Of a stretch of 64,000 nt of DNA, positions 5,501 to 55,800 are shown piece by piece. Position numbers and translations under genes: made by a program. The notes below the pieces were generated by a model, which was not told the origin of the DNA, did no database searches, and saw only the letters and a program-made list of their open reading frames with translations. The stretch is from Chloropicon primus (Eukaryota): positions 310,001 through 374,000 of the forward strand of contig CP060771.1 in the NCBI GenBank assembly GCA_023205875.1, given 5' to 3'. Each line of letters starts with the position of its first letter. Positions within the stretch are counted from its first letter, which is position 1.

Positions 5501-8500
5501 CACTGTCGATGATGTAGTTCACACCAGCTTTCCTGATATCCTGCCTGGACCCAACATAGTACTGATCAACCGTTTTCTGCCAACCCACGTCATCGTGAGT
5601 GTGGCACACCAAGTGGACATTGATGACACCACTCTCTCGGTCCTTGGGCGTCGTGTTATAGCACTGCGAGTCGCAGGACACCACTGACACGAGAGCCAAC
5701 ACGAGCACAACCAAGGCCGTCATCAACATCCTGACCGAGACAACCATCTTGTGTTGGTGGCTGAGCGGCCAAGGAAAAATAAGGTTGATCACGGGGATGT
5801 GGATGGACCGATGGAATGGAAGAGGATCACCCGGATCTCACTCCTCCTCGTAACAAAGTTCAGGCTTGTGTCTCGTTGTCACTTGATATCGCTCATCAGC
5901 AGTCACCTCATCCTGAAAACTGTCCTTGGGATCAAGCGTCAGGGAATCCGATGATTTGTTTGGAGCAGAGGACAGAGGAGAGGCAAGAGTGATCTCTAAG
6001 GGACGGGGGGGAACACGATTAGAGAAACGTTGTTCACAATTACACCACTACCCTCATCCATTCCCTTCTCCAGCATTTCAGTCGCTCCTGGCCTAGAAGA
6101 AAGAGAGGGGGGATGACAATGGGCGATGGGGAGAGCAGGCCTGTGGCTTGGGACGATGACACTGCAACAACAACAAGAACAACAAAAAAGATGGATGGAT
6201 GCATCACATGGTATTGATTGGAACATCATAATACCACTACTAATCGTTAAAAGGCAGCAGCGAGGCCACCAGCCAATGATGACGACGATGACGACGATGG
6301 TGATGCGGGCTTGTGCTTCACCACGAACGTTCTGATCTGCATCGGGTCCACGCTCACCACCGTGGTGCCCGTGATCGAGCCCAGGTCCTGGTTCGCGCTC
6401 AAGCTCTTCTCGTGAATCTCCGTGATCTGCTTCCCTGGCAACAGACTCTGCAAGTCGACCTTGGCCGTCCTCGAGTGCGAGGAGCTCTCCATCGCCTGGT
6501 ACATGTGCGCCAACCGGATCAGAATGCTCGCGGCGTCCTGGGCGTGGAAGGTCATCACGCTCACGTTGTCTGGAAACTTGCCCTGGATACCGGAAAGGGG
6601 GGAAACCCTATCCATGCTCGTGATCGCCCGGAAAGCGGTCACCAAGGGGGACTCCTTCCTCGCCTGCACTTGCCTCCTCAAACCAGGACCGTCGGTTGCA
6701 GAAGCAAGTACGAGACCCGTGGTGCCCGCGACCCTCAGACCCGCGCAATGGCAGTCCCTGCAACCGCACTCGGTCTCGTTCAGGGCCTCCCCAACCCCCC
6801 TCGCGTCGTCCGCAAGGATTCGCCTGTGAACCATGAACTCCAAGTCCCCGCTGTTCAGGCTCGTGCCGCCGCAAGCCCTGTCCAAAAGCACAGCCATCTC
6901 ACTCTTGTCGTCGTGGATGGCAAGGGCTGCAGTCAGGGGATAGTAGTTCCCCGCAACGGGCTCGGAGACCTGCAAGTCCCAAGTGGGCCTGTAGTTCACC
7001 ACGCGCTTCAGCATGTCCCTGCCGTTCGAGTCCGTGTAAAACTCGTCCCCGCTCGATACGCTGGAAGAAACCCTCATCGAGATCTCCTTGCCCAAGTTAT
7101 CGGCAAAGGGTATCGGGCCCACGCGCCACATGAGCTCCGCCCAATCCCGGTTCCCGTACACCCTTGTGCTCAAATGCAGCCAAGGCGCAAACGTCTGCCT
7201 CATCTCGCTGAACAGGGGGCCCTCCACCACGGTCAGATTCAGCTTGTCCCCCCGGTTCAGGAGGGGCAAGGTTCCCTCGGGGCGGAAAATGTAAGCACCC
7301 GAGTTCTGGCCCTGGCCGTTACTCGAGTTGTACACCAAGAAGTCAATCGAGGACTCCATCTGGATCCCGTACTTTTGGTTCTCCATGCCACGCATCAGAC
7401 CAGAGGAACCATCAAAGGTCAAACCAATGTTGCCGTCCGAGATCTTGATGCTGGCCTCGTTGGGGGAAACCGCGCGGGTCTTGGACCTCTGCGCCAACGT
7501 AGCGTTCTGAGGAATGTTCTGGAACAGCACATAGTACACTGCCAATCCCTTCGGAGGTATTTGCACTGCGAAGCCCAAGTCCTCCACGTCCTCACTCGAT
7601 CCCGGGCGCACCGAGGGGTCCAGACCCGTGATTTGCGAGGCAACGGGGTTCATCGCGCCGTCAAAAACAGCCACTGAACTTTCCTTGCCAATGGGAAGGT
7701 GCACAAAATCGTCCCTCGCTTGAGCAAGATTGTTGTACACCACAACCTGCATGTTTTGCTTGCTCCTGCTGGACGTCTCCGTGAAAGCGCAAGTGCTGAT
7801 GTTCAGCAACGGGCACTGCACGAAGTCGTTGTCGAGATCCAGTCCCTCGGCCCTTTGCAGCACATCGCCATCATTGACAGAGGACTCCTCCACAGGTCTG
7901 ATGACACCGTCATCATCTCCGCCTCTGCCCCTCACCTTGCTGTCGATGATCTCCTTGAACCCCTGGTTCAGGAGAGAGGCAGCACCCTCGCCGCCCTTGT
8001 ACAAGCGCTTCGCGTAGTCGTCCGCCACAGCCTGTTTCGCTGTGCCAGTGATGGCATCGTGGTGCAGGACGATGCTCACGGCGTTCTCCAGTTCATCAAG
8101 CACGTCGCTCTCCCGAAGGGAGCTGCCCATGAAGTACTGAATTTGCCTTGCGCTCTGCAGGTACGAGGTCATCAAGAACGCGTAACGCTTCTGGCTTGGC
8201 CTGGAGGTAAAGTACCCTGTCCAATAACCATTCCAACCGTCCGAGTAGGGGAAGAAGTCGTCCGACTTGGTGGGAAACTCAACGCCCGAAGCTCTCTTGG
8301 CCGCAAAGTAGTCCTCTGGCGAGGAATAGAACACGTTCACCCTGGGGTCTTTGTTCGCATAGTGAATCAGCTTGTCCAAGTTCTTGTACCAGATGTTCGC
8401 GTTCTCCCACTGGAAATCGGAGCCCATGAGGAACATGATATCGTCACCCCTGATGGTATCATTATAGAGGATAGCCTGCTGGACAAACTCTTCGACCTTC

Positions 8501-9293
8501 TGGTCCACGTTGTAGTCCTCGAGGCTCGTGTCATCCTGGATGGGATCACAGGCGCAGGCGTTGAAGTCGAAGCAGAAGCAAGGAGGAGGCTGGTAGTTGC
8601 CATCTGGCCTGATCTGCGTCAAGATCGCCTTTGACTTGCCAAACGTAGGAGATGGAGACCAAAGCATCTCCATGGACTTTTCAAGCTTCCTCTTCTCGAG
8701 GTCGACGTGGTCAGAGCGCCCAAGGACCATAGCATCGAAGCCGAGGTCGTGTCCGAACAGATACGCTTGCGTTGCAGAGTGTCCGAACGGATCAAGCTGC
8801 CATCCAGTCCTCGGAACGTACCCAAATGTGTCAAGCAAGAACCTGTGGCCTCTGGTTGTCTGATCCACCATCCCGACAAAGTGAGCCGCAGCCTCGTCGT
8901 GCATACACCACCCACCGTTGGCAAAAGTCAGCTGCTTGTTCTTCACCAAAGTCCTCGCCGCTTCCCTCTTGGCATCGCTGGCCTCGTTCCACCACCTGGA
9001 AAAAAACGCCATCTCCACGTATACGAACTTACGATCCGGATTGTCCTGCAAGTTCTGCACAACACTGTCGATGATATAACCGACTCCTGCCTTGTAGATG
9101 TTCTGCTGGGATCCCACAAAGTATTCGTCCACATTCTTCAACCAACCCACGTCATCGTGAGTGTGGCACACCAAGTGGACATTGATGACACCACTCTCTC
9201 GGTTCTTGGGCGTCGTGTTATAGCACTGCGAGTCGCAGGACACCACTGACACGAGAGCCAACACGAGCACAACCAAGGCCATCATCAACATCC
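2549..9293. repeat. Tandem segmental duplication, ~3.2-kb units (about 2549-5732 and 6110-9293)
   Basis: Near-identical sequence at offset 3561/3562, including the 3' UTR. Confidence 0.95.
2686..5747 (-). pseudogene. GH38 alpha-mannosidase copy A, carrying a 1-nt frameshift near the 3' end (pseudogene or sequencing error)
   Basis: HTHDDVGW and GWQLDPFGHS motifs; G5 at 3036-3040 versus G6 at 6597-6602 in copy B splits the ORF into 3000..5792 and 2686..3003. Confidence 0.8.
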
Positions 9294-9375
9294 TAACCTT
9301 TATGTTGATGCCCGAATCGAACGCCAAGGAGAAAGAAGTTTGCGGAGAGGAGGGAGTGTAACGCACGTAACGCAT
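6247..9375 (-). CDS. GH38 (lysosomal/vacuolar type) alpha-mannosidase copy B, intact
   Basis: Signal peptide, HTHDDVGW, GWQLDPFGHS, HHDAITGT, FYTDSNG motifs; exact start uncertain. Confidence 0.93.
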   Translation of the reverse strand: MRYVRYTPSSPQTSFSLAFDSGINIKVRMLMMALVVLVLALVSVVSCDSQCYNTTPKNRESGVINVHLVCHTHDDVGWLKNVDEYFVGSQQNIYKAGVGYIIDSVVQNLQDNPDRKFVYVEMAFFSRWWNEASDAKREAARTLVKNKQLTFANGGWCMHDEAAAHFVGMVDQTTRGHRFLLDTFGYVPRTGWQLDPFGHSATQAYLFGHDLGFDAMVLGRSDHVDLEKRKLEKSMEMLWSPSPTFGKSKAILTQIRPDGNYQPPPCFCFDFNACACDPIQDDTSLEDYNVDQKVEEFVQQAILYNDTIRGDDIMFLMGSDFQWENANIWYKNLDKLIHYANKDPRVNVFYSSPEDYFAAKRASGVEFPTKSDDFFPYSDGWNGYWTGYFTSRPSQKRYAFLMTSYLQSARQIQYFMGSSLRESDVLDELENAVSIVLHHDAITGTAKQAVADDYAKRLYKGGEGAASLLNQGFKEIIDSKVRGRGGDDDGVIRPVEESSVNDGDVLQRAEGLDLDNDFVQCPLLNISTCAFTETSSRSKQNMQVVVYNNLAQARDDFVHLPIGKESSVAVFDGAMNPVASQITGLDPSVRPGSSEDVEDLGFAVQIPPKGLAVYYVLFQNIPQNATLAQRSKTRAVSPNEASIKISDGNIGLTFDGSSGLMRGMENQKYGIQMESSIDFLVYNSSNGQGQNSGAYIFRPEGTLPLLNRGDKLNLTVVEGPLFSEMRQTFAPWLHLSTRVYGNRDWAELMWRVGPIPFADNLGKEISMRVSSSVSSGDEFYTDSNGRDMLKRVVNYRPTWDLQVSEPVAGNYYPLTAALAIHDDKSEMAVLLDRACGGTSLNSGDLEFMVHRRILADDARGVGEALNETECGCRDCHCAGLRVAGTTGLVLASATDGPGLRRQVQARKESPLVTAFRAITSMDRVSPLSGIQGKFPDNVSVMTFHAQDAASILIRLAHMYQAMESSSHSRTAKVDLQSLLPGKQITEIHEKSLSANQDLGSITGTTVVSVDPMQIRTFVVKHKPASPSSSSSSSLAGGLAAAF

Positions 9376-15248: not shown

Positions 15249-15818
15249 TCACATTTCCTCCTCGCTGCTGCTGAAGTCTTCCTCGTCGTCTGATCCTCGG
15301 TTCTCCTCAATCCACTCGGCGACGTCATAATGCTCGTACTCCTCTGCCCATTCTATGCACTCCACAAAGTCCCAAGGGCAAGGCGGATCTTGACTGCGAA
15401 GCCACATGAGAATATCAAGCCGACCTCCTCTAGCTGCTGCTTCACAAGTCCGCTCTGCCCAAGGGCAAGGCGGGTCCTGGCTTCGAGCCCACTGCAGAAC
15501 ATCAAGGTGACCTCCTCTAGCTGCTGCTTCACAAGTCCACTCGTCCCAAGGGCAAGGCGGGTCCTGGCTTCGAAGCCACTGCAGGGCATGAAGGTGACCC
15601 CCTTCAGCTGCATCCGTCTTCAGAGCAACCTTCTTCACAGGGTTCGCCGTCGCCGTCGTCACCACCTCAAGAAACGTCCTGCAGGTCAAACCAAAACCAA
15701 GGTGATCGTAATCGTCCAACTTCTTCACGACCAGGACCCGCGCACTCCCTGGCAAAACCTCCAACGCATGCTTGGCCTCCATTCTCCGCCTCTTGCTCGC
15801 TCCCCTCGTCACCGCCAT
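15249..15818 (-). CDS. Short F-box-like + ankyrin-like repeat protein
   Basis: Three 27-aa repeats GGHLDVLQWARSQDPPCPWDEWTCEAAA; N-terminal FGLTCRTF segment; acidic tail. Confidence 0.75.
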   Translation of the reverse strand: MAVTRGASKRRRMEAKHALEVLPGSARVLVVKKLDDYDHLGFGLTCRTFLEVVTTATANPVKKVALKTDAAEGGHLHALQWLRSQDPPCPWDEWTCEAAARGGHLDVLQWARSQDPPCPWAERTCEAAARGGRLDILMWLRSQDPPCPWDFVECIEWAEEYEHYDVAEWIEENRGSDDEEDFSSSEEEM

Positions 15819-16444
15819 CCTTCGAGCGTTACGCTCCCTCTTCCTAACGCTAACGCTTCGCTTCCTCACCCGAGCGTCACATCCTTCGAGAGAGGCTTCT
15901 TTCGAAAGGTCAAGACACGGATCTTCCCTCTGTTGCTTCTCCCTTCGCCTCTTCCCTCGTCCTCGTCCTCTTCTCTCCTCTCTCTCTCCCTCTCTCCGCC
16001 TCTCTCTCGCTCTGCTCCGCTCTGCTCTCCCTCCAGAGAATCCTCACCACTGCGTCGTTTCCTTCGAGTGAGGGCTCGTTCGAAAGAGCGAGAGATGCTG
16101 CTTCTGCTCTTCCGCTCCTCCTCCTCCCTCTCCTCCTCTGCCGCGCTCTCCTCGCCGCCTTCTCCTCTCTCTCGATCGTGTGGCTCACAGGAGTCTTTGT
16201 CTATCCAGTTCAGTTGGCCGAGAGAGAGAGAGAGAGAGGAGAGAGCGACGAAAGAGGCGACGAGAGGCGACGAGGAAGGGGATTGGGACGGAGTTGAGGG
16301 AGACAGACGGAAGCTTTGTCTCTCGATCATTCGAAAGAGCGTTCGGTCGAAAGAAACGGATCCCGTGGTGACATCATCCACTCCATTCCATTCCATTCCA
16401 AGAAGGGGAGGTGGAGGATTGATTGGATTGGAGAGAGAGGAGGG

Positions 16445-17668
16445 ATGACGACGACGGCGATGCGAGTGATGGGTCCAGAGAAGGTGTCTCGAGTGAAGAG
16501 GTCGCATGGGAGAGGGACCTGTCGAAGGGGGGACCGCTCACGCGTGGTGTTTCGTCAGAGGCAAGCGGGTTGGGCGAGGTGGAGGCCTGGAGTGGAGAGG
16601 AGAAGGGAGGTGGCGGGTTGTGAGGGATGGCGCTCGTTGGTTTGCCATGCCACTCCATCCTCGACGGCCCTTGGCGAGAGCTCACTGTTCAAGAAGGCGG
16701 ACATCTCTGCGGAACACTTTGAGGACGCGAGGAACAAGGAGAACTGGGATAAGCTTGCACAGGTTCTGTCCTCGAAGCTTGACATAGAGGTGGACTCTCC
16801 TCGTATTCAGCACTACTACCTGCCGGTGTACATGTGGATCAAAGCGAAGATGAGGGAGCACAAAGAGGCCACGTCCTACTCCTCCTCCTCCGAAGAGGCT
16901 GGGCCTCCCTTGTGCGTTGGCCTCAGCGCGCCGCAGGGCTGCGGCAAGACGACCCTCGTGACTGCGTTTGAGGAACTCTTCGACAGCGAAGGCCTCACTT
17001 GTGTTTCCATGTCCCTGGACGACTTTTACCTCACGAGGAGGGAGCAGGTTGCCCTGGCTGAGAGCCACTCCGAGAACGAGCTCCTGCAGGTGAGAGGCAA
17101 CGCGGGCACGCACGACGTTGACCTTGCCATGAGTCTGATCGAGAGCGTCAAGAGTGGCACGCGGACAGAGATCAAGGTGCCTTGCTACGACAAGACTGCT
17201 TTCGAGGGAAAGGGCGATAGGCACGAGGAGAGCAAGTGGAGGACCTACGACGCGTCCAAGGTAGACGTTGTCCTCTACGAGGGTTGGATGCAGGGCTTCA
17301 CCTCCATGGGTGACGACAGCAAGTTGGGAGAGGTCCACAGCGGCATTCCTGAAGTGAACAAGTACCTCGACAGGTACGCCGAGATGTGGTCCCTGATGGA
17401 CATCTGGCTGATCATTCAGGTGAAGCAGCTGGACTGCATCTATTCCTGGAGGCTGCAGGCCGAGAAGGCCATGAAGCAAGCGTTCGGGGAGGATAAGGGC
17501 ATGACCGACGAGGAGGTCAAGGCTTTTGTGGACAAGTACATCCCGGCCTACAAGGCCTACCTCCCGGATCTCTACGATGCTGACAAACACATGGATAACT
17601 TGGGCTGCAAGAGCCAGGACGACGTCTTCATGTTCGAAGTCGACGCCACGCGATCGCCAGTAGAATAA
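16445..17668 (+). CDS. GLYK: D-glycerate 3-kinase, plastid type
   Basis: P-loop GLSAPQGCGKTT, SLDDFYLT, RGNAGTHD, EGWM, WRLQAE. Confidence 0.9.
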   Translation: MTTTAMRVMGPEKVSRVKRSHGRGTCRRGDRSRVVFRQRQAGWARWRPGVERRREVAGCEGWRSLVCHATPSSTALGESSLFKKADISAEHFEDARNKENWDKLAQVLSSKLDIEVDSPRIQHYYLPVYMWIKAKMREHKEATSYSSSSEEAGPPLCVGLSAPQGCGKTTLVTAFEELFDSEGLTCVSMSLDDFYLTRREQVALAESHSENELLQVRGNAGTHDVDLAMSLIESVKSGTRTEIKVPCYDKTAFEGKGDRHEESKWRTYDASKVDVVLYEGWMQGFTSMGDDSKLGEVHSGIPEVNKYLDRYAEMWSLMDIWLIIQVKQLDCIYSWRLQAEKAMKQAFGEDKGMTDEEVKAFVDKYIPAYKAYLPDLYDADKHMDNLGCKSQDDVFMFEVDATRSPVE

Positions 17669-21281: not shown

Positions 21282-22646
21282 TTAAATTCTTTGTACAACG
21301 TGGGCCAGGATTGTGGGCTTGTGCACGTACATGTTGATCTCGTTATCATCTACTTCACCGACGTGCGCCTCCTCCTCCTCTTCGCCCTTGCGCCCCCCCT
21401 CTACTTTCTTGTCCTCCGGCGCCGGAACGGACGACGATGAGATGGCCAAGTCTGGTATGTCAATATCCGGAAAGCGGTCCTTCCAAGCGGCGAGCCTCTT
21501 CTCGACGGCCAGCTCAAGCTTATCCTCCAGCTTTCTCTTGCCGCAAACCCCGTAGCTGTCCGGGTCATTGAGAGCCTTCTCAATGTCTTTGGCTCGACTC
21601 GCACACGTGTGTGTGTTGCACTTGAGCGCGGCGCTGATCTTATGGAGAGGCACCTCGCCATCCGCCTCACTGTTGATGCTCTTGTAGAGGATAGCAGCGA
21701 TGGCGGGCAGAGGTCTTTTTCCGGTTGTGAGGAGCTTGCTCTCGCAGAACCTCAAAAGCGAGGCAGACCTTTGCTTGAACTCTTTCAGGACCAGCGAAGA
21801 GTCAAACTCCTCGGTCAATACCCCTTCGTTCTTTAACGTCCCTATCGATTTCATCAAGAGCTCTTGCATGTCCAAGCAAGGCAAGGAAAGCTGCATGATG
21901 CCCTGCAACCGGGTACTCACGTCACGCAAGTATATCGCAGCCGTGTTAATGGCCTCGGCAACATTCTCAAGGAGGAGGGGGAAGTGAAGCTTCCGGCTCG
22001 CGAGGTAAACGCAGGCCCCAACCAAGACCTCAATGTCACCCTTGCTGTAAGCCCTCAGGCCGAACTTCTTCACGAACGCTTCTTCAGTCCGCGGGACCAG
22101 GCCCGCCCCCCCGAACCCTGGCTTCTTCGGACCCTCCGCCTTCATTGCAGAGGTAGAGGCTTGCTGCTGGAGGGAAGAGTTTAACGGCTCTGGAACTTCC
22201 AGCTCCCGGAAAAGGCACTGCACTTCGTGTATGAGATTCGGTGGAAGCCCGAGCTTCTCCCTGAGACTCCGCAGCGGAAACGCCGTCACCTCCCTGGCGC
22301 TGGAGTTGGTGTTCACAACCCCTTCACCCCCCCACTTCGCGCCGCTGCGGATTCCCAGACCACCACGGCGGTGCCCAAAACTGCTGTGCTTCTCCAAGAT
22401 ATTCAAAGTCTTGGCGATGTCCTTATCCGCCTGGTCCAGCTTGACAATGAACCCGTGCCTGCCCCCTCCCAAGTTGTAGGTCAGGTTCAACGAGCCTGTC
22501 GTGCTCACCAGACTCTCCGCGAGGACGTAACCACACCTCTCGCAGGAAACCATGCTCTCTATGTCGTCCAGACTCAAGCACCCTGGGCCCTCGCCGCAGT
22601 TGGGGCAAGACATCTTCTCGAAATCGACGGCTGCGGCCCCACCCAT
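21282..22646 (-). CDS. TFIIB/BRF-related factor
   Basis: N-terminal zinc ribbon CPNC...CERCGYVL; cyclin-fold motifs GACVYLASR and LTTGKRPLPAIAA. Confidence 0.7.
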   Translation of the reverse strand: MGGAAAVDFEKMSCPNCGEGPGCLSLDDIESMVSCERCGYVLAESLVSTTGSLNLTYNLGGGRHGFIVKLDQADKDIAKTLNILEKHSSFGHRRGGLGIRSGAKWGGEGVVNTNSSAREVTAFPLRSLREKLGLPPNLIHEVQCLFRELEVPEPLNSSLQQQASTSAMKAEGPKKPGFGGAGLVPRTEEAFVKKFGLRAYSKGDIEVLVGACVYLASRKLHFPLLLENVAEAINTAAIYLRDVSTRLQGIMQLSLPCLDMQELLMKSIGTLKNEGVLTEEFDSSLVLKEFKQRSASLLRFCESKLLTTGKRPLPAIAAILYKSINSEADGEVPLHKISAALKCNTHTCASRAKDIEKALNDPDSYGVCGKRKLEDKLELAVEKRLAAWKDRFPDIDIPDLAISSSSVPAPEDKKVEGGRKGEEEEEAHVGEVDDNEINMYVHKPTILAHVVQRI

Positions 22647-29935: not shown

Positions 29936-30638
29936 GACTTGGATCAATCCACGACCTCTTGCTCAAATCCGGGCCAAATCCTTCGAGGAAACGACGAATG
30001 GAAAAAGGAGAAGACGATGCTTCGCGTGAAAACCTTTCTCGTGTCGTCCAATGACCGCAAACTCCTCGAAACTGGCGATGAAAAGATCCCACTACTGAGT
30101 TCCCCCTCCGCCGACCGCTTATCCATTTGAGGAGAGTGGTCTGAGTGTACCGTATTTTGCATCAAATGGAACGCTCTTGGGGGAAGGGATATTTCCAAAC
30201 TTAACATCTAATTTTTGGTAAGTTGTTATCTCACTTTGTGGTGTACTTCAAATGTGAAGTAGTGGAACATTTCCAGGTCTGGTCAAAGTTGTCTTTTCTG
30301 AGTTGTCACTCAAGGAGACTGTGAAGAGGAGAGAGGGAAACGAGGTGAGTTTGGTTCCAAGTCCCAGTCGACTCCGTGCGCAATGCCGGGAGATGAGGAC
30401 AGATTTCAAAGCGTCACGTTTTTATCTTTCGATTGACCTCTCGCACGGAGCAAACTGAGGCCTTGGTCCCAAGTTTTGGTGCGGAAAGGACTGACTGAAT
30501 CTTCTTGGTCCCTTTGCTGCCATGTTCTGCCGTTTGCTCTGCCACTGCGAAGCTGTTGAGGAAGAAGAGGAGATCATTTTGCTTTGATCTGCTGATCACC
30601 ATTCATTGCTGTCCGAGGAGGAGGAGGAAGAAGGAACC

Positions 30639-33600
30639 ATGTCAAGCGGAGGGGTGAACACGGAAGGGCTTCTGCCATGGGAGGCCATACAGTTGAAAAC
30701 CTTCTTGAACTGGGCCAACTCTTTCATCGGCACGACGGACCCTGAGCTGAAGATTTTGGACCCCAAGACCGAGCTTGCGGACGGCATCAGGCTGATCACC
30801 CTAATGGAGAACCTGACCGGCGAGAAGCTCGGGAGGTATCACAAGAAGCCCAAGATGAAGGTCCATATGGTGGAGAACTTGAACTTGGCCCTCAAGGTGG
30901 TGAACGAGGCGTGCGAGAAGAAGAAGATTGGGTTGTTCTACTCGGCGGAGAACATGATCGAAGGAAACGTGAAGCTTTTCATGGGAATGCTTTGGGTTTG
31001 CATCAGCAAGTTCATGATCGATTTCATCAAGGAGGACGACAAGAACGCCAGGGACGCCTTGCTGTTGTGGTGCCAAAAGAAGACCGCTTCGTACGACAAC
31101 GTGACCATCGAGAGCTACAGGAGCGATGACTTCCAGAATGGCATGGCCTTCTGCGCTCTTCTCCACAAGCACAACCCCAAGAGCATTGACTTTGGCTCCC
31201 TGAGCCCGGCGAACAAGTGCGACAACTTGCAGCTCGCTATGGACGTGGCCAACGAGTGTTACGGCATCCCCAAGCTGATCGACGTGAGCGACATCAGGGA
31301 GTCACCGGAGACTGCTTACTTGGATGAGAAGACCTTGATGACTTACTTGTCCTTCCTGTGGAAGCAGTTCGCGAGCAGCAAGAAGGTGGAGAGGGTGATG
31401 GGCCACGTGTCCAAGATATGCCGCAAGGAACGCGTGAACCGTCAACTGATGCAGGGTTACGAGACCAGAGCCAAGAAGCTCTTGGAGTGGATGAAGAAGC
31501 AAAAAGATCAGTATAGGAACTTTGCTTTCGGCACCTCGGAGGAAGAGGTCAAGGCTTGTCAGCAGGCCCTCTTCGAGTTCAAGAAGAAGGAGAAGCCTAC
31601 CAAGTCCGCCGAGAAGGGCGATCTCGAGACCTCGTTGGCGTACTTGCAGACCAAGCTGCTGACGGAGGGCAGGCCGCCGTACAACATTCCCTCGGGAGTG
31701 AGCAGCCAGGAGATCAGCGAGAAGTGGGCCGACCTGTGCAAGAGGGAGACGAGCTACGAGGACGAGATCACCAGGACGATGATCATGATGAGGCAGGCCA
31801 ACCAGGTCATCAGCGGAATCATGTCCCATGCCGCGCACTACAGGGTGTGGATCGAGAACCTCCTTACCAGCGAGTACTTCACCAACGCCAAGAAGTGCGA
31901 TTCCCTCTCGCAAGCCGACGCCGCTTGCACCCAGCACGAGTTGTACGAGGACTCGTACGAGAAGTACAGGCTCAAGCTCGGAATGCTGCAGAAGAACTTG
32001 GAGAACGTGACCAAGTACACTAGGGGCATCACCCCGACCACCATGGACGAGGGGAAGGCCCAGCTGGCGGATCTCGAGAGCGACTTCCAGAAGCTGAGGT
32101 CCTCGCTCGCGTCGAGGAAGGCTGCGTTGCAGGCCGACCTTTTGAACCAGAGGGCCCTGGATGCCCAGCGCTTAGAGTTCGCCAAGAGGGCCGAGGAGTT
32201 CACCTCCTGGGTCGAGGACACCAAGGACGAGCTGAGCACGACCATCACCTGCGGCTCCGTCGAGGAGGTGAACGAGCTCGTGATGCTCCTAGAGGCGAAG
32301 AACGAGGAGATTTCTGGAAAGTGGTTCGAGATCGATGCCTTGGCGGCTTTGAACGACCAGAGCTGCGGCAGCGAGGACTCCGCGAACCCCTACACCCGCT
32401 TCACTGTCGCCGAGCTTGATTCGATGCTTCATGAGGTCTTGGAGATCGCGAACAACCGCGGCGAGCTCTTGGAAGCTGAGCTGAAGATGCAGACCGGCTT
32501 TGATGAGCTGAGGGAGACGTACTCGAGCGCCGCTTCCGAGTACATGGAGTGGGCCGAAGAGATGAAGAGGAAGGTTGCCACCAGTGATGCCGAGACTGGC
32601 ACCGCGGAGGACGAGCTCAACCTCCTGAACAAGTTGCTGGAGGACCTTGACATCTCTGGAAGGGAGAAGGTCCAAACCGTCGATACCAAGTACGACGCGA
32701 TTACCGAGAACGGCATCAGCCTCACCGCTGGCCGCGTCGATGACGCAGGAAACGCGATCAGGATCTTCTCCCCCGCTGAGATCAGCGGCGAGCACGAGCT
32801 GGTGGGCAGAATCATCCGCGAGAAGAGCGAGCTGATTCAGGAAGATATTGCGGCGAAGAACAAGTCCGCCGTCCCCGAGGACGTGCTTGCTGAGTTGGAG
32901 GAGGCCTTCAAGGTGTTCGACAAGGACAATGACGACAAGCTCGTGGAGAGCGAGTTCAAGGCCTGCTTGCAGACTCTGGACATGGAGTTCAAGGAGGTCA
33001 CCGATGCGAACCCTGGCCTTGCGGACAGGCTGCAGGAGGGCATCTCCTTGCAAGAGTTTGTGGACATCTTGGGCGCCATCTTCAAGGAGCAGGACACTTA
33101 CGAGTATTCCCTCGAGTGCTTCAAGATGCTTGCCGATGGCAAGGACACGATCACTGCGGCGGACTTGAACAAGTCTGACCTTGATCCCGAGGACATCGAC
33201 TTCCTGGAGGAGCTCATGTCCCAGTTGACCGAGCCCAACCAGAAGGGCGCCAGGCGAAGATCTCTCACCGGTGCTCCTGTGCTGGATTACAATCAGTTCT
33301 TGCAGGAGGTTTACCTTGGCAAGGCATCCGCGGCCGCCCAGGAGGAAGCAAGGTTGCAGGCCGAGGCCGATGCGGAGGAGCAAAAGCGTTTGGATGAGGA
33401 GGAAGCCGCGAGGGAGAAGGAAAGGGAGGAAAGGGAGGAAAGGGAGAGGAAGGAGAGGGAGAAGGCTGAGGCTGAGGAGAGGAAGGCCAGGGAGGAGGCA
33501 GAGGAGACCGCCAGGAAAGCTGCTGAGGAGGCCAGGAAGGCTGCTGAGGAGGCCAAGCGCAAGGCCGAGGAGGCCAAGCTCGCTGCTGAGGCGGAGGAGA

Positions 33601-34070
33601 AGAAGAGGAAGGAGGAGGAGGCCGCCAGGATTGCCGCCGAGGAGGAGAGGAAGAGAAAGGAGGAGGAGGCCAAGGAGAAGGTCAGGTTGGCCAAGGAGAA
33701 GGCCGAGGCGGAGGAGAGGAAGAGAAAGGAGCTCCAGGCGCAGAAGAGAAAGGAAGGAAAGCAGGGCATGCTTTACAAGAAGGGTGGAACCAAGGGCTCA
33801 AGCGTGTTCTCCAGGGCGAACTGGAACCAGAGATGGTTCGTTGTCGGTGAGGAAGGAATCTTGAGGTACTTCAAGGACCAGGACATGAAGGACATGAAGG
33901 GAGAGATCGTTCTCTCGGAGTGCAAGGCCTTCAGACTGGGCAACCACAGGGAGAGGCTCAACTGCGTGCTGTTTGAGCTGAAGAACGGAGAGACGTTCTT
34001 CATGAGCGCTGACAGTGAGACCGAGGCAGAGGATTGGCTTTCTGTTGTCAAGTTGTATGTTGAAGAATAA
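30639..34070 (+). CDS. Alpha-actinin-like actin cross-linker: CH-CH, spectrin repeats, EF-hands, ER/K single alpha helix, PH domain
   Basis: IQLKTFLNW, LLLWCQKKT, FQNGMAFCALLH, FDKDNDDKL, EEEARK-rich segment, KQGMLYKKGG..NWNQRWF..EAEDWL. Confidence 0.85.
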   Translation: MSSGGVNTEGLLPWEAIQLKTFLNWANSFIGTTDPELKILDPKTELADGIRLITLMENLTGEKLGRYHKKPKMKVHMVENLNLALKVVNEACEKKKIGLFYSAENMIEGNVKLFMGMLWVCISKFMIDFIKEDDKNARDALLLWCQKKTASYDNVTIESYRSDDFQNGMAFCALLHKHNPKSIDFGSLSPANKCDNLQLAMDVANECYGIPKLIDVSDIRESPETAYLDEKTLMTYLSFLWKQFASSKKVERVMGHVSKICRKERVNRQLMQGYETRAKKLLEWMKKQKDQYRNFAFGTSEEEVKACQQALFEFKKKEKPTKSAEKGDLETSLAYLQTKLLTEGRPPYNIPSGVSSQEISEKWADLCKRETSYEDEITRTMIMMRQANQVISGIMSHAAHYRVWIENLLTSEYFTNAKKCDSLSQADAACTQHELYEDSYEKYRLKLGMLQKNLENVTKYTRGITPTTMDEGKAQLADLESDFQKLRSSLASRKAALQADLLNQRALDAQRLEFAKRAEEFTSWVEDTKDELSTTITCGSVEEVNELVMLLEAKNEEISGKWFEIDALAALNDQSCGSEDSANPYTRFTVAELDSMLHEVLEIANNRGELLEAELKMQTGFDELRETYSSAASEYMEWAEEMKRKVATSDAETGTAEDELNLLNKLLEDLDISGREKVQTVDTKYDAITENGISLTAGRVDDAGNAIRIFSPAEISGEHELVGRIIREKSELIQEDIAAKNKSAVPEDVLAELEEAFKVFDKDNDDKLVESEFKACLQTLDMEFKEVTDANPGLADRLQEGISLQEFVDILGAIFKEQDTYEYSLECFKMLADGKDTITAADLNKSDLDPEDIDFLEELMSQLTEPNQKGARRRSLTGAPVLDYNQFLQEVYLGKASAAAQEEARLQAEADAEEQKRLDEEEAAREKEREEREERERKEREKAEAEERKAREEAEETARKAAEEARKAAEEAKRKAEEAKLAAEAEEKKRKEEEAARIAAEEERKRKEEEAKEKVRLAKEKAEAEERKRKELQAQKRKEGKQGMLYKKGGTKGSSVFSRANWNQRWFVVGEEGILRYFKDQDMKDMKGEIVLSECKAFRLGNHRERLNCVLFELKNGETFFMSADSETEAEDWLSVVKLYVEE

Positions 34071-36378: not shown

Positions 36379-38007
36379 ATGGGTCGGGAAGTGGAGCATG
36401 GTGGCCCACAAGGGGCCAGGGGCGTGTCCAGTGACGGATCAAGCCTCGAAGGAGGCGAAGGCGGCCTCTGTGCTGACCTGTGGCTGAACATTTTTCACAA
36501 GCTGCACGCGAACGACCACCTTCCCTTCTCCCTCACCTGCAAGATGTTTCGTGACGTGCAACTTCGATCGAGGACAAGAGTCTTGCGGACACACTTGGGA
36601 TCGACGCTATCCTGGAGTGACGCTTCCATCAAGGAGTGGAGTAGGGTCACCGAGGGTTACCTCAGGTGGCTGCTGTTCAACGTGATAAGGAACAAGCGTT
36701 ATGCTCAGATGGTGCTGAAGATTGCTGCGGTTGCTGGGAAGCTGGGCGTGTTTCAGAGCCTCCAAGCGGAGCAATTGAGCTTACTGGACAGATCAATGTT
36801 CTCTTGTGCCGCCCGGGGGAACCAGAGGGCCGTCCTGGAGTGGCTCATCGAGGCGGAGGTGGACGACTTGGACGCGAAAGTGTGTGCACAGGCAGCCCAA
36901 GGCGGGCATCTGGAGCTGCTCAAGTGGCTGAGGAACTCCAAGGGATGCCCATGGAGCTCCAACGTGTGTCTCTTCGCTGCGGAAGCAGGAAACTTTGAAA
37001 TACTTGAGTACGCTCACTCCGAGGGGTGCAGGGTGAGCTCGAGCACGGTGACGGCTGCCCTTCGAGGCGGCCACCTCGATGTATACTCGTGGCTTGTCGC
37101 GAAAGGGTGCAAGGTCGATCGCTTCACGGCCTGCGAAGCGGCCAGGCGAGGTTATCTTCGGGAGCTACAGCGGATGAAGGACGACCCCAAACTCCTCAAG
37201 TCGTGGTCCAACGAGTACGTAGCGATGGGCGCTGCGGAGGGCAGCGAGGAGGCGTGGCAGTGGCTGATCGAAAACGGTTGCCCTTTCGGTGTGAGCAGCT
37301 ACCAGGCAGTGATGCGGAAAGGTAACCTCGACGTCTTCAAGAGAATGGTGGACCACTCGACGGAAAGGGATTTGTCCTTCTTCCAGCCCGAGCGTTACCT
37401 GCCCTTCGCAGCCTTGTTCGGCCACTTGCCTCTGCTGCAGCACGCTGTAGACGTCGCGGGGATGACAATGGATGATAAAGTGTGTGCCGGAGCTGCAAAG
37501 GGGGGGCACCTGGGCATACTTCAGTGGGCTAGATCCAAGGGCTGCCCTTGGTCTTTGTCAGTCGCGAGAAACGCAGCAGAGGAATGTCACCTTGATGTCC
37601 TGCAGTGGGCTCGAAGCCAGGATCCGCCTTGCCCTTGGGACGAGAAGACTTGTGAAGGTGCAGCTCGAGGAGGTCACCTTGACGTTCTGAAGTGGCTCCG
37701 AAGCCAGGATCCGCCTTGCCCTTGGAACGGGGACGTTCCTGCCGAGGCAGCTCAAGAAGGCCACATTGATGTTCTCAAGTGGGCGCTCGCCAATGGTTGT
37801 CCGGTGGATGAGCGCACTTGCGCTTATGCAGCCAGAGCTGGCCATCTTTCCCTTCTCCTCTGGTGCAGGAAGGGCTGCCTCAAGGAATCGTGGAACTTGG
37901 ACGCCGCCCCGTGCCCCTGGAACCACCACGCCTTTCTGTATGCTACGGCGAGCGGCCACGAGGACGTTTGCGAGTGGCTGGAGAACAATGGAGCAGAAAC
38001 AGGCTGA
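36379..38007 (+). CDS. F-box-like + ankyrin-like repeat protein
   Basis: N-terminal LCADLWLNIF..FSLTCKMF; repeated GGHLxxLxW.R..GCPW units. Confidence 0.8.
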   Translation: MGREVEHGGPQGARGVSSDGSSLEGGEGGLCADLWLNIFHKLHANDHLPFSLTCKMFRDVQLRSRTRVLRTHLGSTLSWSDASIKEWSRVTEGYLRWLLFNVIRNKRYAQMVLKIAAVAGKLGVFQSLQAEQLSLLDRSMFSCAARGNQRAVLEWLIEAEVDDLDAKVCAQAAQGGHLELLKWLRNSKGCPWSSNVCLFAAEAGNFEILEYAHSEGCRVSSSTVTAALRGGHLDVYSWLVAKGCKVDRFTACEAARRGYLRELQRMKDDPKLLKSWSNEYVAMGAAEGSEEAWQWLIENGCPFGVSSYQAVMRKGNLDVFKRMVDHSTERDLSFFQPERYLPFAALFGHLPLLQHAVDVAGMTMDDKVCAGAAKGGHLGILQWARSKGCPWSLSVARNAAEECHLDVLQWARSQDPPCPWDEKTCEGAARGGHLDVLKWLRSQDPPCPWNGDVPAEAAQEGHIDVLKWALANGCPVDERTCAYAARAGHLSLLLWCRKGCLKESWNLDAAPCPWNHHAFLYATASGHEDVCEWLENNGAETG

Positions 38008-41513: not shown

Positions 41514-43051
41514 TTACGAAGTATACGTGCCCTGGAGCTGCCTCTTCTTCTCGTTGGTGACGGGGACGGGTCCAAAGAGCTGGCTTTGGCTGGAGCTCCT
41601 CTTGTTCAGTGGGACGTAGTGCCTCAACCAAACGCCCTGGTAGTCCTGCTGCGGCCTCAGAATCTTGGTGTCTGGGTCAACGAGGGACTCCCTCCAGTGA
41701 GCAAGCCACCCGGAAATCCTTGGAACGGCAAAGAGGCAGGTGAAGAACTCTGGTGGGAAGCCCATGGCCCTGTAGATCAAGCCGGAGAAGAAGTCCACGT
41801 TGGGGTAAAGCTTTCTCTTGACAAAGTACTCGTCAGCCAAAGCGGCGTTCTGCAGGGCCTCGGCAACCTCGATGAGAGGGTCCTTGCCCGTGGTGGCGAA
41901 GACCTCGTCCACGATTTTCCGGATGATCTTCGCCCTAGGGTCGAAGTTCTTGTAAACGCGGTGACCGAACCCGAAGAGCTTCTCCTTCTTGTCCTTCACC
42001 CCCTGCAAGAAGGCTGGGATGTTCTGGACCGATCCGATCCTCTCAAGCATCCTGAGAACGGCCTCGTTGGCGCCTCCGTGGAGAGGTCCGTAGAGGGCGC
42101 CCACAGCTCCGGCAACGGAGGTGAAGACGTCAACCCCGCTCGAGGCCAAGTGCCTGCACGCTGCGGTGCTGCAGTTCATCTCGTGCTCGGCGTGAAGCAG
42201 GAAAAGGACGTCGAGGGCCCTGGAGAGCTTTGGGTTAGGCCTGTAGTTCACGTCCCCGTTCGAGTCGAGCATGTAAAGGAAGTTCTCGGCGTAAGAAAGC
42301 CCCGCCTTTGGCTGCGGGAGCTTCTTTCCCGTCCTCAGGTGGTACGCAGCGGCGGCGATCGCTGGGGCGTTACCGAGGATGCGAGCGATCTGCTGGTCCT
42401 GCACGATCGAGGACTTGTACACGCCAGAACCGGCGAAAGCTGGGTTGGCCTCGGGGTAGAAGGACCCAAGACTGGACAAGCCGACGACGAGGGCGCTCAT
42501 GGGGTGAGCGTTGTGTGGAAGGGCGGCGATCGCATTCTCCACTCCCTTGGGAATCACAGAGTTCTGCATGATCAGGCTCTCCCACTCGGCACTCTGCTTC
42601 TGGTTTGGCAGCTCCCCGTAAAGCACGAGGTGAGCGACGTCCAAGAACGAGGCTCCCTCGGCCAACTCCTCGATAGGGTACCCTCTGTACCTCAAGATGC
42701 CCTGAGAGAGGCAGGCGGAGAAGCAGCAGCAGCGAAGCAAGTGCGTCAGTCACGACCGGTGAGTCAGCGGACGGGACGGGTGTGGCGTCGTGTCGCGCCC
42801 TCTTCACTTACCTTTCCTCCATCAATGTAAGAGATGGAGGACTTGACTGCGGCTGTGTTCGTGTACCCTGGATCGTAGCTGCGGACACCAAGAGGCTTCA
42901 AGTCCGATGCCTTGAAGGTGTTCCCTTCGCTCACTTTCACGTTCACCTGCTTCCCGGTGGCCTCGTCCTTTATCACAAGGTGTCTGGCGAGTGTTCCAGC
43001 CCTCCGCGTCGCAGCATTCCTCATGCACACAGATCCCTCGGTCTCAGACAT
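41514..43051 (-). CDS. Citrate synthase, peroxisomal/glyoxysomal type (intron ~42703-42811)
   Basis: [48 protein letters not shown]2-like RAGTLARHL. Confidence 0.92.
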
Positions 43052-52847: not shown

Positions 52848-55800
52848 ATGGTTGCTGCTGCACTAGAGGAGAGGAGGATCGACCTGTACATGTCCCTCTC
52901 CCGTGGAGGGAGTGCTGGACTCACAAGCCAGGAGGAACTTCTTGTCGCCCACAACTTGGGTTCCCTAAGTCACCTGACTCGGTTCCTGTGTCAAGACATA
53001 GTGACGAGTGACAGGAAGCTGAGCTCGACGGCTTTGTTCATGTGCGTGACATGCAAAAAGGAAGTCTACCGGAACTTTGACATGGCAGCCATAGCGAGAA
53101 GCTGCACGGAATCGATGAGGCAGGAGCATGGTGGTAAAGCACTGTTGGTCCGAGCGTTGGCGAGGACGCTCGCTTGCGGCTACGAGTACCCTTTGTGCCA
53201 AGAGGAGGAAGCAGGGAGAGCGAGAGGGGAGTGGAAAAGATCCATCAGAGCGATTGTGAAGTGTGCATTTGGTGTGACAACTCGTGGTGGCGACGAGGAG
53301 GCTGCAGCAGCATCCGTTAGCGCGTTGAAAGGTCTCGAGGACTTGGTGTCACTGATCCTTCGACGACGGGCCTCGAAGCTTGGAGTGAGCGAGGTCGACT
53401 CGGATGATGGTGAGATCTTGGGCAAGAGGTCCGGCCACTCGTTCTGGGACGCGTGGAGGCACAGGAAGGCATTCGAGAGGGACCTCGAATTCATTGTCCG
53501 GAGCGAGGTGATCGGGGGCACGAAGGCCACGATGCAGTTCTCGGCACTCTTGAGCTCCATCCACGACCGTGCGAGGAAAGTTGTCTTGAGCTGCGTCAGG
53601 AAGTGCTTGGAGCTCTGCGGGTTGGAGGACGAGTTTCACGCTCAGCTTTGGCACAGCTTCATGGAATCCAATTCACTTCTCGGGTCTCAGGCTCCTGAAA
53701 CCAGGCTGGAAGCTTGCCTCCTGGCCATTAGCCTGGCACTGATGCGCGACGAAAGCTCCCAGCTCCTCGAGAGTGCGGTCTTCCAGGGATTGGAGCTGCT
53801 GCTCAGCTCGCGAGGGAGGGTCGTGGGAATCTCGTGCCCAGAATTGTGGGCGCTCACGCTGAACAGCTTCCGCCTGCTCCCCTTGGACAAAGTAGGAGTT
53901 CTGACAAAGCTCTCGGCCAAGATCGGGACTCACTTGAAGGAATCCCTGGACCTGTCGCACCCAGACGGCGGTGCTCAGCCCGTGTGCACCGAGGAGCTGG
54001 ACTTGGTTGCTCTTTGGGTCGTGCAGACCGTTCATGTGCTGTTTCGGGAGCTCAGGTGCAGAGGAGACTGGACGAGCGGTGTCACCATCTCCTCGGCTCT
54101 GGGCCTGGACGATGGCAGCATCGGGAGCTCGGGCGGGTCCTTCCAAGACAGGGTCTTCGCTTGCCTGTCCGAGAGCATGTGCCTGCGGCTTAAGGAGGAA
54201 GCCATGCAGGTGGAGGAAGCAGACCCGGTTGACATGGCGTATGCCCAGGAGCCAAGGCACGCAAACGTCCTTCTTTGGCTTGAAATGGCGGTGAAAGCGT
54301 TAGGAGAGTTTGGGATGTACAAGGACGAGAGATTGAGGGCGGAGGGTGGAGAGGTCGCGATCTCGCCCTTGAGCGTCCTCGCTCTGACTGCATACTCCAA
54401 CCTTTTGCACTCTTGCCTTTGCCTCTCACACTGCCTGAGGGGCAAAGGAGCGGGGGAGTGCTACGAGAAGGCCCAGTTCTTGGATCAGATGCTGAAGCAC
54501 CTGGTGTACGACGTGCTCGACAACTTCAAGGCCGGTGGAGCGAATCAGTCCCACCAGGTAGTTTACCTGGACGCGCTGCATGGAGTTGTCTGCCACTCTG
54601 ACGTGGTGACGGAGAACAAAGTAATCCTCCAGACTAATGTGCGAGGCGCGCTTGGGAAGGAGGAGCGGCAACGGGTGTTGGAGGAAGCAACGCAGATGAG
54701 CTTGGTCGGCAAAGTTATCCATGTGTTCAAAGAGGTCCTCCTGGCACGCTGCATGGATATAGAGCAAGGATCTGTGAACTCGAGATCCTCCCACCTTTAC
54801 GAGGAGGCCTTCTTGTCCCTTTGCTCCATTGCGGAAGCCTACGTGTCTCGCTGCCTGGACAGGATGATTGAATTCGGCCCGGAGCAGGAGAGGGGGGCCC
54901 TCATGTTCATCCCCCTCCTGTCAGTCCTGCAAGGGTTTGCCCAATCAGAGAAGCTTGACCAGTCCTCGAGAGAGCAGCTCCAAATTTGCATCGAGAGCAT
55001 CCTGAAGAGCTCAAAGGCTCGCCAGCAAAAGCAAGGGAAGAGTGAGCAATCCTCCCCGATGCTCTCGTCGTTTCTGGACGCGATGCCTCCCACCCTCCTG
55101 GCCCTCCCCAACGGGGAGAGGGCAAAGGCAGACCTAGGAGCCGTCCTCGGTGGAACGCGCTTCACGTGCAGGAGAACCATGTTGGAAGAGGCCGGGCCGA
55201 GCCATTCGCGGAGTTGGTCCCCCCTTGGTGATCTGACTGCCTTCAATGCAGGGCCGGAGGAGTGCGCGGGTCGGCTCAGAGTCATGTTTCCACCCAAGCA
55301 AACCTTGTCGTCCGCGGGCGATCTCCTGCACATGAAAGTGACCCATGCCCCGTTGGGCGGTTACGATCGTAACAACGCGGAAGCTTTGAGAAAGAGGTGC
55401 TCCTGCATCCACCTCGCTGTCCACGTCGAGATCGTAAGCGAGGCGGCTTTCAAAAGAGTTTGCATTACCTTGGGGTCAACGGGACCGTGCAGGATAGACA
55501 AGAGGGTGATCGAGCTCCGGGACGTCTCACCCGGGGAGCGGAGAAGCTTCGACGTTCTCGTGGACATTTTTGAGTTTGGAAAGTGCTGCCTGGTTCCCCA
55601 AGTCCTGGGTGTCGCGGGGGTGACGACGAGCTCGTCGTCCAGCGCTGGATCTCAACATCCAAAAGGTTTGCGCTTCTATTCGGACGGGCCTCCAGCGTAC
55701 TTGGCGCTCACGGAAGAGCCAAGCCTCGCAGGAGATGAGAAGCACATCGAGTACACCTTCTCCCCTCTTCACTTTGGCATGGAATTGCAGTTGAGGCCCT

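Follow-up and report, generated by a model that had tools for sequence, protein, structure and literature searches.

In a 64,000-nucleotide stretch of the genome of Chloropicon primus (GenBank assembly GCA_023205875.1, contig CP060771.1, positions 310,001 to 374,000 of the forward strand; hereafter the window, to whose numbering all positions refer), we find a gene that encodes an alpha-actinin continued at its C-terminus by a charged helical spacer and a pleckstrin homology (PH) domain. We consider it somewhat probable, judging from the sequence, that the product is a Ca2+-regulated actin cross-linker in which a four-repeat actinin, a charged helix and a PH domain together tether actin to acidic membrane lipids. 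The coding sequence lies at 30639..34070 on the forward strand (+) and forms a single uninterrupted open reading frame (ORF) of 1143 codons plus stop (1143 aa) that requires no intron. An in-frame stop codon is located 51 nt upstream of the ATG (30585-30587), and multiple alignment shows the N-terminus to agree with that of the orthologues. A single gene, read in one continuous frame, thus holds both the actinin and the PH parts. The GC content of the gene region (57%) and the scarcity of introns in the window agree with the values published for C. primus (57.5% GC and 0.5 intron per gene; PMC6731263). A previous interpretation of this DNA, made from the letters and their translations without database searches (the sequence-only reading), had described tandem CH domains, roughly four segments of spectrin-repeat size, EF-hands, an ER/K-rich helix and a terminal PH domain, in this order. 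Pfam, alignment to solved structures in the Protein Data Bank (PDB) and the charge pattern of the helix bear out each of these elements, the spectrin repeats included, as well as their order and the observation as a whole; all Pfam domain calls given below exceed the curated cut-offs.

The core aligns with alpha-actinin from end to end

The protein begins with an actin-binding domain (ABD; residues 13-248, 30675..31382, +) composed of CH1 and CH2, which Pfam CH matches in two stretches with an E-value of 2.2e-32 and which Foldseek superposes on the solved actinin ABDs with TM-scores of 0.85-0.93 and a root-mean-square deviation of about 2 Å. This is followed by a rod of four spectrin repeats (residues 260-741, 31416..32861, +). 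Pfam Spectrin matches the rod in three stretches (E = 1.1e-9), residues 265-666 align with the four-repeat rod of ACTN2 (1hci_A; E = 5.2e-24, phmmer against the PDB), and the rod is all-helical in the full-length AlphaFold2 model, which has a mean predicted local distance difference test score (pLDDT) of 77.8. A calmodulin-like domain with EF1-2 and a Ca-insensitive EF3-4 completes the core (residues 747-892, 32877..33314, +), as seen from the alignment and from the Pfam families EF-hand_6 (PF13405, residues 752-780, E = 3.4e-6) and EFhand_Ca_insen (PF08726, residues 817-892, E = 1.2e-8). Taken together, residues 13-864 pair with residues 17-852 of human ACTN2 in an alignment that has no large gaps (4d1e_A; E = 1.3e-87, phmmer against the PDB), and 4d1e is also the top Foldseek match of the full-length model (E = 1.2e-26). 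A look-up in the Protein Atlas returned generic actinin clusters only, with scores of at most 0.83.

By these alignments and models, the core is a genuine four-repeat alpha-actinin from end to end. With ACTN2 (4d1e) and Dictyostelium alpha-actinin A it shares the CH-CH ABD, the neck, the four repeats, a canonical EF1 and the Ca-insensitive EF3-4, and 24 alignment columns are invariant across 44 actinins; sequence identity to the animal and amoebozoan actinins is just 26-29%. The protein shows every feature of an alpha-actinin that can be checked in sequence except one, namely that the chain does not end at the calmodulin-like domain. The canonical C-terminal motif of actinins, LDYxxF...Y, has its last residue at Y892 in the multiple alignment. 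Past this motif, ordinary actinins run on for a few residues only, whereas the window protein adds 250 residues that comprise the charged helix and the PH domain.

The putative calcium-binding residues of the EF1 loop (residues 761-772, 32919..32954, +), with D761 at position 1, D765 at position 5 and E772 at position 12, are invariant in all 11 family members, and the EF2 loop is degenerate. We therefore predict one Ca2+ site, at EF1. We also observed a 14-aa insert inside EF3-4, directly before the actinin C-terminal motif (residues 867-880, 33237..33278, +; alignment), which carries the sequence RRRSL. Among the 10 family members whose sequence extends over this stretch, 6 have an insert of this R-R/K-x-S type, which is missing from ordinary actinins. 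Its RRxS-type motif could serve as a site for basophilic kinases.

The tail consists of a charged spacer and a PH domain

The spacer (residues 893-1040, 33315..33758, +) is rich in E, K, R and A. Residues 895-1040 consist of 66% E/D/K/R and 5% hydrophobic residues, and the 150 residues from 893 to 1042 contain two glycines and prolines in total, both close to the ends. Residues of opposite charge are paired at i,i+4 in 57 instances, compared to 30.8 ± 4.2 in shuffled sequences (none of 10,000 shuffles reached 57), and residues of like charge in 9 instances, compared to 30.4 after shuffling. Hydrophobic residues fill at most 7% of the a/d positions in any of the seven heptad registers, while alanine fills up to 37% of them. 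Two AlphaFold2 models place helices at residues 895-962/965 and 974/980-1040, with a helix pLDDT that reaches about 90 in the second model. This combination of charge content, i,i+4 pairing and lack of a hydrophobic seam is the signature of an ER/K-type single alpha-helix (SAH), and we predict that the spacer forms one; designed AEEEKRK heptads have been reported to form stable single helices (PMC5347031). The ER/K helix of about 140 aa that the sequence-only reading had placed at 33340-33760 is thus recovered at nearly the same position. We rejected a coiled coil in place of an SAH given that no hydrophobic seam is present, with the reservation that the alanine-rich core described below still permits pairing of helices.

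The length of the spacer varies little within the family. Measured from Y892 to G1043, it amounts to 149-159 aa in 9 of 12 sequences and to 163, 165 and 182 aa in the others. Invariant columns within it are confined to a 22-aa core (residues 962-983, 33522..33587, +) and are all alanines, which take the a/d-like positions of three heptads. The core is located 59 aa from the PH domain in 10 of 12 sequences, and the segment that precedes it measures 68-87 aa. In the window, this core is encoded by a 21-nt tandem repeat. The alanines could mark a contact between helices or could merely be a sequence compatible with an SAH, and the pattern fits either reading.

The PH domain closes the protein (residues 1041-1141, 33759..34061, +). 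Pfam PH (PF00169) matches residues 1041-1136 with an E-value of 2.4e-12 and 47.7 bits against a cut-off of 25.1. AlphaFold2 builds a seven-stranded beta-sandwich, with strands within residues 1045-1123, and a C-terminal helix at residues 1127-1141. For most of the domain, the full-length model has block-mean pLDDT values of 76-83, and the C-terminal model has values of about 90. The nearest PH domains of solved structure are those of myosin X (PH2, 3tfm, E = 6.8e-11), SWAP-70 (E = 4.9e-10) and DAPP1 (E = 1.7e-9). A spectrin-derived PH domain was rejected, since the PH domains of beta-spectrin score just E = 0.016-0.05 against it.

Proteins with this architecture are found in at least three classes of green algae

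The window protein (P0001) served as the reference for the identity figures unless another protein is named. A word-indexed search returned its close relatives P0002-P0005 and P0007 (1137-1221 aa), together with CYMTET_16241 of Cymbomonas tetramitiformis (P0006, 784 aa). All four of P0002-P0005 carry a PH domain, and P0007 carries one by alignment that falls below Pfam detection at E ≤ 0.001. An exhaustive HMMER search with the PH domain alone against 1.84 billion representatives gave 475 matches at E ≤ 0.001, of which 17 were scanned with Pfam. Six of these 17 are of actinin type (P0242, P0253, P0290, P0279, and the fragments P0247 and P0261), and the other 11 are two myosin X proteins, two RasGAPs, a kinase, an RGS protein, a cyclase, a Ras/Roc protein and three PH-only proteins. 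P0242, P0253, P0279 and P0290 were recovered by this exhaustive search alone; at 35-45% identity, family members escape the word-indexed searches. That the word-search lists contain no Mamiellales, core chlorophytes or land plants is thus no evidence that these groups lack the gene, and for its absence there we rely on the literature.

Pfam matches to both CH and PH are present in ten full-length proteins (P0001-P0005, P0242, P0253, P0290, P0390 and P0462). One of these, P0390 (1143 aa, 87-88% identical to P0001), belongs to the 90% cluster of P0002 and is labeled 'alpha-actinin A [Chloropicon roscoffensis]'. P0290 is an MMETSP transcript of the mamiellophycean Dolichomastix tenuilepis (taxid 195969). 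P0247 is likewise an MMETSP transcript, and its cluster mate P0462 (1123 aa) runs from the CH domains through to the PH domain. Over 765 collinear residues, P0462 shares 51% identity with P0006 from Cymbomonas. The P0006 model stops within the EF-hands at 784 aa, and because the related P0462 continues to the PH domain, we consider P0006 to be probably cut short. The architecture thus occurs in at least three chlorophyte classes (Chloropicophyceae, Mamiellophyceae and Pyramimonadophyceae) and in many marine environmental sequences, and is not peculiar to this alga.

Identity of the ABD to that of P0001 ranges from 47 to 90% in 9 of 10 relatives and is 17% in P0279, and identity of the PH domain ranges from 27 to 88% in the nine relatives that bear one. 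In P0005, identity is 56% for the ABD, 39% for the rod, 30% for the calmodulin-like domain, 49% for the spacer and 52% for the PH domain; the corresponding values are 52, 28, 26, 40 and 44% in P0253, and P0242 has 52% for the ABD, 37% for the rod and 50% for the PH domain. In these three proteins, the PH domain is conserved about as well as the ABD and better than the rod and the calmodulin-like domain. This conservation, together with a spacer whose length is kept while the core falls to about 25-30% identity, suggests that the tail is under selection.

Two further proteins differ in their layout. P0007 (1221 aa) has an additional rod insert of about 100 aa that resembles a fifth spectrin-type repeat (alignment columns ~440-590), showing that rod length varies inside the family while the tail is kept. 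In P0371 (465 aa), a disordered N-terminus is combined with a long ER/K tract and with a PH domain 40% identical to that of P0001, without an actinin part, such that a standalone ER/K-PH cassette may exist.

A predicted link between actin and the membrane

We propose the following mechanism for the tethered cross-linker. By homology with solved alpha-actinins, two chains would pair antiparallel via their rods, so that each end of the dimer would carry one ABD and one calmodulin-like domain. Binding of Ca2+ at the EF1 loop would lower actin binding, as it does in non-muscle and Dictyostelium actinins. Each dimer end is predicted to extend into an ER/K-type helix up to ~22 nm long (calculated as 0.15 nm per residue over the spacer) that bears the PH domain. 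The basic beta1-beta2 face of this domain (K1047, K1048, K1052, R1059 and R1065) would be the binding site for acidic lipids, either phosphoinositides or others. The dimer could then keep actin filaments at a set distance from the membrane, at two points. Such a protein is predicted to be a small analogue of the spectrin- or ERM-type linkers of the cell cortex that evolved independently.

The likeness to beta-spectrin lies in the N-terminal CH-CH pair, the spectrin repeats, the C-terminal PH domain and the logic of an actin-to-membrane linker. In contrast to beta-spectrin, which has about 17 repeats in a long rod that pairs with alpha-spectrin and whose EF-hands sit on the alpha chain, the window protein has four repeats (a rod of 482 residues), carries its own EF-hands, and places a charged single helix between the core and the PH domain. 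Given that the PH domain is nearest to the myosin X PH2/DAPP1 type and not to that of beta-spectrin, the resemblance is, on this comparison, convergent. The protein is therefore not a hybrid of spectrin and actinin by descent: the core is alpha-actinin throughout, and the PH domain is not of the spectrin type. The tail of myosin X (SAH, antiparallel coiled coil and PH1-3) likewise has a charged single helix followed by PH domains; its PH2 is the best match noted above, and the myosin X proteins P0367 and P0374 are among the matches of the exhaustive PH search. The window protein, however, has no motor, IQ, MyTH4 or FERM domain and has a single PH domain rather than a split triple, and the relation to myosin X is one of similarity at the level of domains only.

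Several observations weigh against this mechanism. First, both AlphaFold2 models break the spacer helix with low confidence at residues ~963-979 (pLDDT <50). Since this break coincides with the conserved alanine-rich core, the spacer may associate with a further helix or double back on itself, and would then not be a free 22-nm rod. Second, many PH domains bind proteins instead of lipids. In those that bind phosphoinositides, beta1-beta2 follows the pattern K...K/R-x-R; the beta1 lysines and the final arginine of this signature are conserved in the family, but the beta2 motif reads W-N/L/Q-x-R in 8 of 10 aligned members, so that, compared with the W-(K/R)-x-R found in the alignments with DAPP1 and myosin X, the first of the basic residues is absent. 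High-affinity binding of phosphoinositides is, on the basis of this replacement, not assured. Third, the vegetative cells of Chloropicon are described as small, non-motile and scale-less (PMC8245530).

The first of these observations leads to an alternative, doubtful in our view but the strongest of those considered, in which the tail is a regulatory element and not an anchor. The spacer would form a hairpin, or pair with the partner spacer along the rod via the alanine core, and the PH domain would sit by the actin-binding and calmodulin-like domains and gate actin binding, with or without an input from lipids. The invariant alanine stripe, its distance to the PH domain, constant in 10 of 12 sequences next to an upstream part of more variable length, and the break of the helix at this stripe in both models are in line with such folding, and by our own estimate the spacer length of ~22 nm is close to that of an actinin rod. 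A related precedent is the EF3-4 lobe of ACTN2, which is reported to dock on the neck and to be freed by PIP2 (PMC4259493). On the other side, the spacer offers almost no hydrophobic residues and no seam in any register, and the AlphaFold2 break may just reflect a repetitive alignment. Moreover, AEExKRK-like heptads such as those of the spacer are typical of monomeric single helices (PMC5347031).

We regard it as still less probable that the PH domain binds a protein partner, such as a small GTPase, the tail of a membrane protein or F-actin, in which case the protein would be an adaptor between actin and a protein complex. This would fit the replacement of the first basic beta2 residue by N, L or Q, and tight binding of phosphoinositides is known from no more than a minority of PH domains. 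The beta1-beta2 segment is, however, strongly basic in all ten members, with 5-10 K/R and 0-3 D/E; P0290 and P0247 keep the full W-K-R-R form; and the nearest solved relatives, myosin X PH2 and DAPP1, are lipid binders.

Regarding the cellular process in which the tethered cross-linker would act, a link to phagocytosis is plausible. Dolichomastix is a confirmed bacterivore, Cymbomonas is a known phago-mixotroph, and some Chloropicon strains are predicted to be phago-mixotrophic (PMC8245530). In the gene-based phagotrophy model of the same study, C. primus scores 0.707 and C. roscoffensis 0.002-0.109. Because C. roscoffensis has the gene despite its predicted non-phagotrophy, the link would not be exclusive, and cytokinesis or a general anchoring of the cortex are equally open.

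The tail has a single origin among the sampled actinins

We built an unrooted maximum-likelihood tree of 26 sequences from 864 aligned columns of the core that they have in common (LG+C20+F+G4, with a careful search). A branch with support 99/97 separates the 11 PH-bearing sequences and Cymbomonas from 14 ordinary actinins, which include Dictyostelium, Cavenderia, Stereomyxa, a Physarum-like cluster, a colponemid, a sponge, a ctenophore and a fish, and quick versions of the tree give the same picture. On this tree, the tail changed state once, indicating a single origin among the sampled actinins. Although an unrooted tree cannot formally separate gain from loss, we favor a gain in the green lineage because the named carriers are all chlorophytes. 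Within the family, Dolichomastix groups with Cymbomonas and P0247 (100/99), and the Chloropicon sequences group with P0005 and P0242 (100/99); P0279 sits on a branch of great length, and the attachment of P0007 to the remainder has a support of just 74/64. Mamiellophyceae and Pyramimonadophyceae are sisters in the published species tree (PMC6731263). As the named taxa branch like the species, the core appears to have been inherited vertically within Chlorophyta, and an actinin with the tail would already have existed in the ancestor shared by Chloropicophyceae, Mamiellophyceae and Pyramimonadophyceae, which has been dated to ~950 million years ago (PMC6731263).

P0014, P0015 and P0050 (827-850 aa) form a clade of actinins of ordinary length that adjoins the PH-bearing family. 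Should they turn out to be from a glaucophyte or another archaeplastid, this would bear on the deep origin of the gene.

It has also been suggested that the gene might have been acquired laterally. We consider it quite improbable that it entered the green algae by transfer from another eukaryote rather than having been kept from the ancestor of Archaeplastida. Such a transfer would account for the patchy spread of the gene, as land plants and well-studied chlorophytes are reported to be without alpha-actinin (PMC4494055; PMC8329775), and the nearest PH-less sequences, the three just named, are of unassigned taxon. However, no donor lineage is visible in the tree of 26 sequences: the family does not fall within Amoebozoa, Metazoa or another sampled group. 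It spans all three classes, and since Dolichomastix and Cymbomonas group together as in the species tree, any transfer would predate the old split of the classes. Actinin-like transcripts have, furthermore, been reported from glaucophytes (Becker et al., 2015; PMC4494055). Of the interpretation first given to this gene, the retention is thus favored within the green lineage, and the domain order and the green-algal host stand, while a hybrid with spectrin by descent does not.

An annotation or assembly artefact that fused an actinin gene to a separate PH gene has a negligible probability, given 1143 codons without a stop or frame change and the same collinear architecture in ten full-length proteins from independent assemblies and in two transcriptome-derived sequences (P0290 and P0247); the idea of two separate genes was rejected, as the continuous ORF and the recurring architecture effectively refute it. 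Contigs of sequencing run X1, the type of which is a guess, are exact matches to 33613-33865 and 33840-34038 and were left out of this evidence.

Neighboring genes in the window

Other products of the window include a GT5 starch synthase, an RWP-RK protein, FtsH, TyrRS and a TatA/Hcf106 protein with an N-terminal extension. Of these, the GT5, RWP-RK, TatA/Hcf106 and FtsH genes agree with the green-algal host, and the organism-named matches of FtsH are all from green plants or green algae. FtsH resolves the host no further than Viridiplantae, whereas the C. roscoffensis orthologue P0390 points to Chloropicon or a close neighbor. Two adjacent genes for GH38 alpha-mannosidases on the reverse strand (3003-5747 and 6250-9375, −; 915 and 1042 aa) have a three-domain layout in common, suggesting that they arose by tandem duplication. 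A 493-aa ORF at 48-1526 (+) contains a lamin-tail domain (PF00932, E = 5e-13), and a 523-aa ORF at 56321-57889 (−) contains the C-terminal domain of a Fam20C-type Golgi kinase (E = 1.6e-8), which is unusual in an alga. Two genes downstream of the actinin gene, at 36379-38004 (+), is a gene for an ankyrin-repeat protein of 542 aa; this recalls the pairing of spectrin with ankyrin and is probably a coincidence. The citrate synthase ORF at 41517-42569 (−) begins at profile position 67 of 357, making an upstream exon likely, so that introns do appear to occur in this intron-poor window. For three long ORFs at 52848-56174 (+), 15330-16445 (+) and 21285-22646 (−), of 1109, 372 and 454 aa, Pfam gives no match at E ≤ 1e-5.

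Relation to previous work and significance

Alpha-actinin-like transcripts have been reported in 'a few basal prasinophytes' and in glaucophytes, and were tied to phagotrophy (Becker et al., 2015; PMC4494055). The prasinophyte transcripts probably represent the same gene family, and the main text of that paper contains no occurrence of a PH domain, pleckstrin or an added helix. Lineage-specific variants of actinin outside animals are likewise seen in Entamoeba (6sl2), Bigelowiella (PMC5775757) and Rhodamnia, the latter stated to be the only plant with an actinin (PMC8329775). According to these sources, the Bigelowiella and Rhodamnia proteins have the standard layout of ABD, rod and calmodulin-like domain with a rod of varying length, whereas the window protein has a canonical rod and a new C-terminal module. 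Our literature searches found no description of an actinin with a PH or single-helix tail, and a survey of SAH proteins (PMC5812594) contains no occurrence of actinin, spectrin or pleckstrin. What was already known therefore comprises the actinin-like transcripts of prasinophytes and the 'alpha-actinin A' label in C. roscoffensis; the tail of helix and PH domain is, as far as we found, undescribed.

A more far-reaching reading, which we hold to be unlikely, is that early green algae built a spectrin-like membrane skeleton of their own. Its unit would be an antiparallel actinin dimer with alanine cores paired across the dyad, two helices of ruler length and lipid-binding PH ends, forming a Ca2+-switchable strut between actin and the membrane. 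This strut would date to the ancestor of Chloropicophyceae and Mamiellophyceae, would have been lost in Mamiellales, core chlorophytes and land plants, and would have been kept only where the cortex dynamics of an ancestral phagotrophic type persist.

Plants are the textbook eukaryotes without alpha-actinin or spectrin, and the way in which actin contacts the membrane is little known for the minute marine green algae that are dominant in parts of the ocean. Our findings indicate that early-branching chlorophytes kept a full alpha-actinin and added to it, via a helix of conserved length, a targeting module of a membrane type, which would represent an independent answer to a problem for which animals use spectrin, ERM proteins and myosin X. 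The family would provide a natural test case for an ER/K helix that sets the distance between two functional ends, and the protein is a candidate component of the actin machinery that may serve phagocytosis or cytokinesis in green algae.

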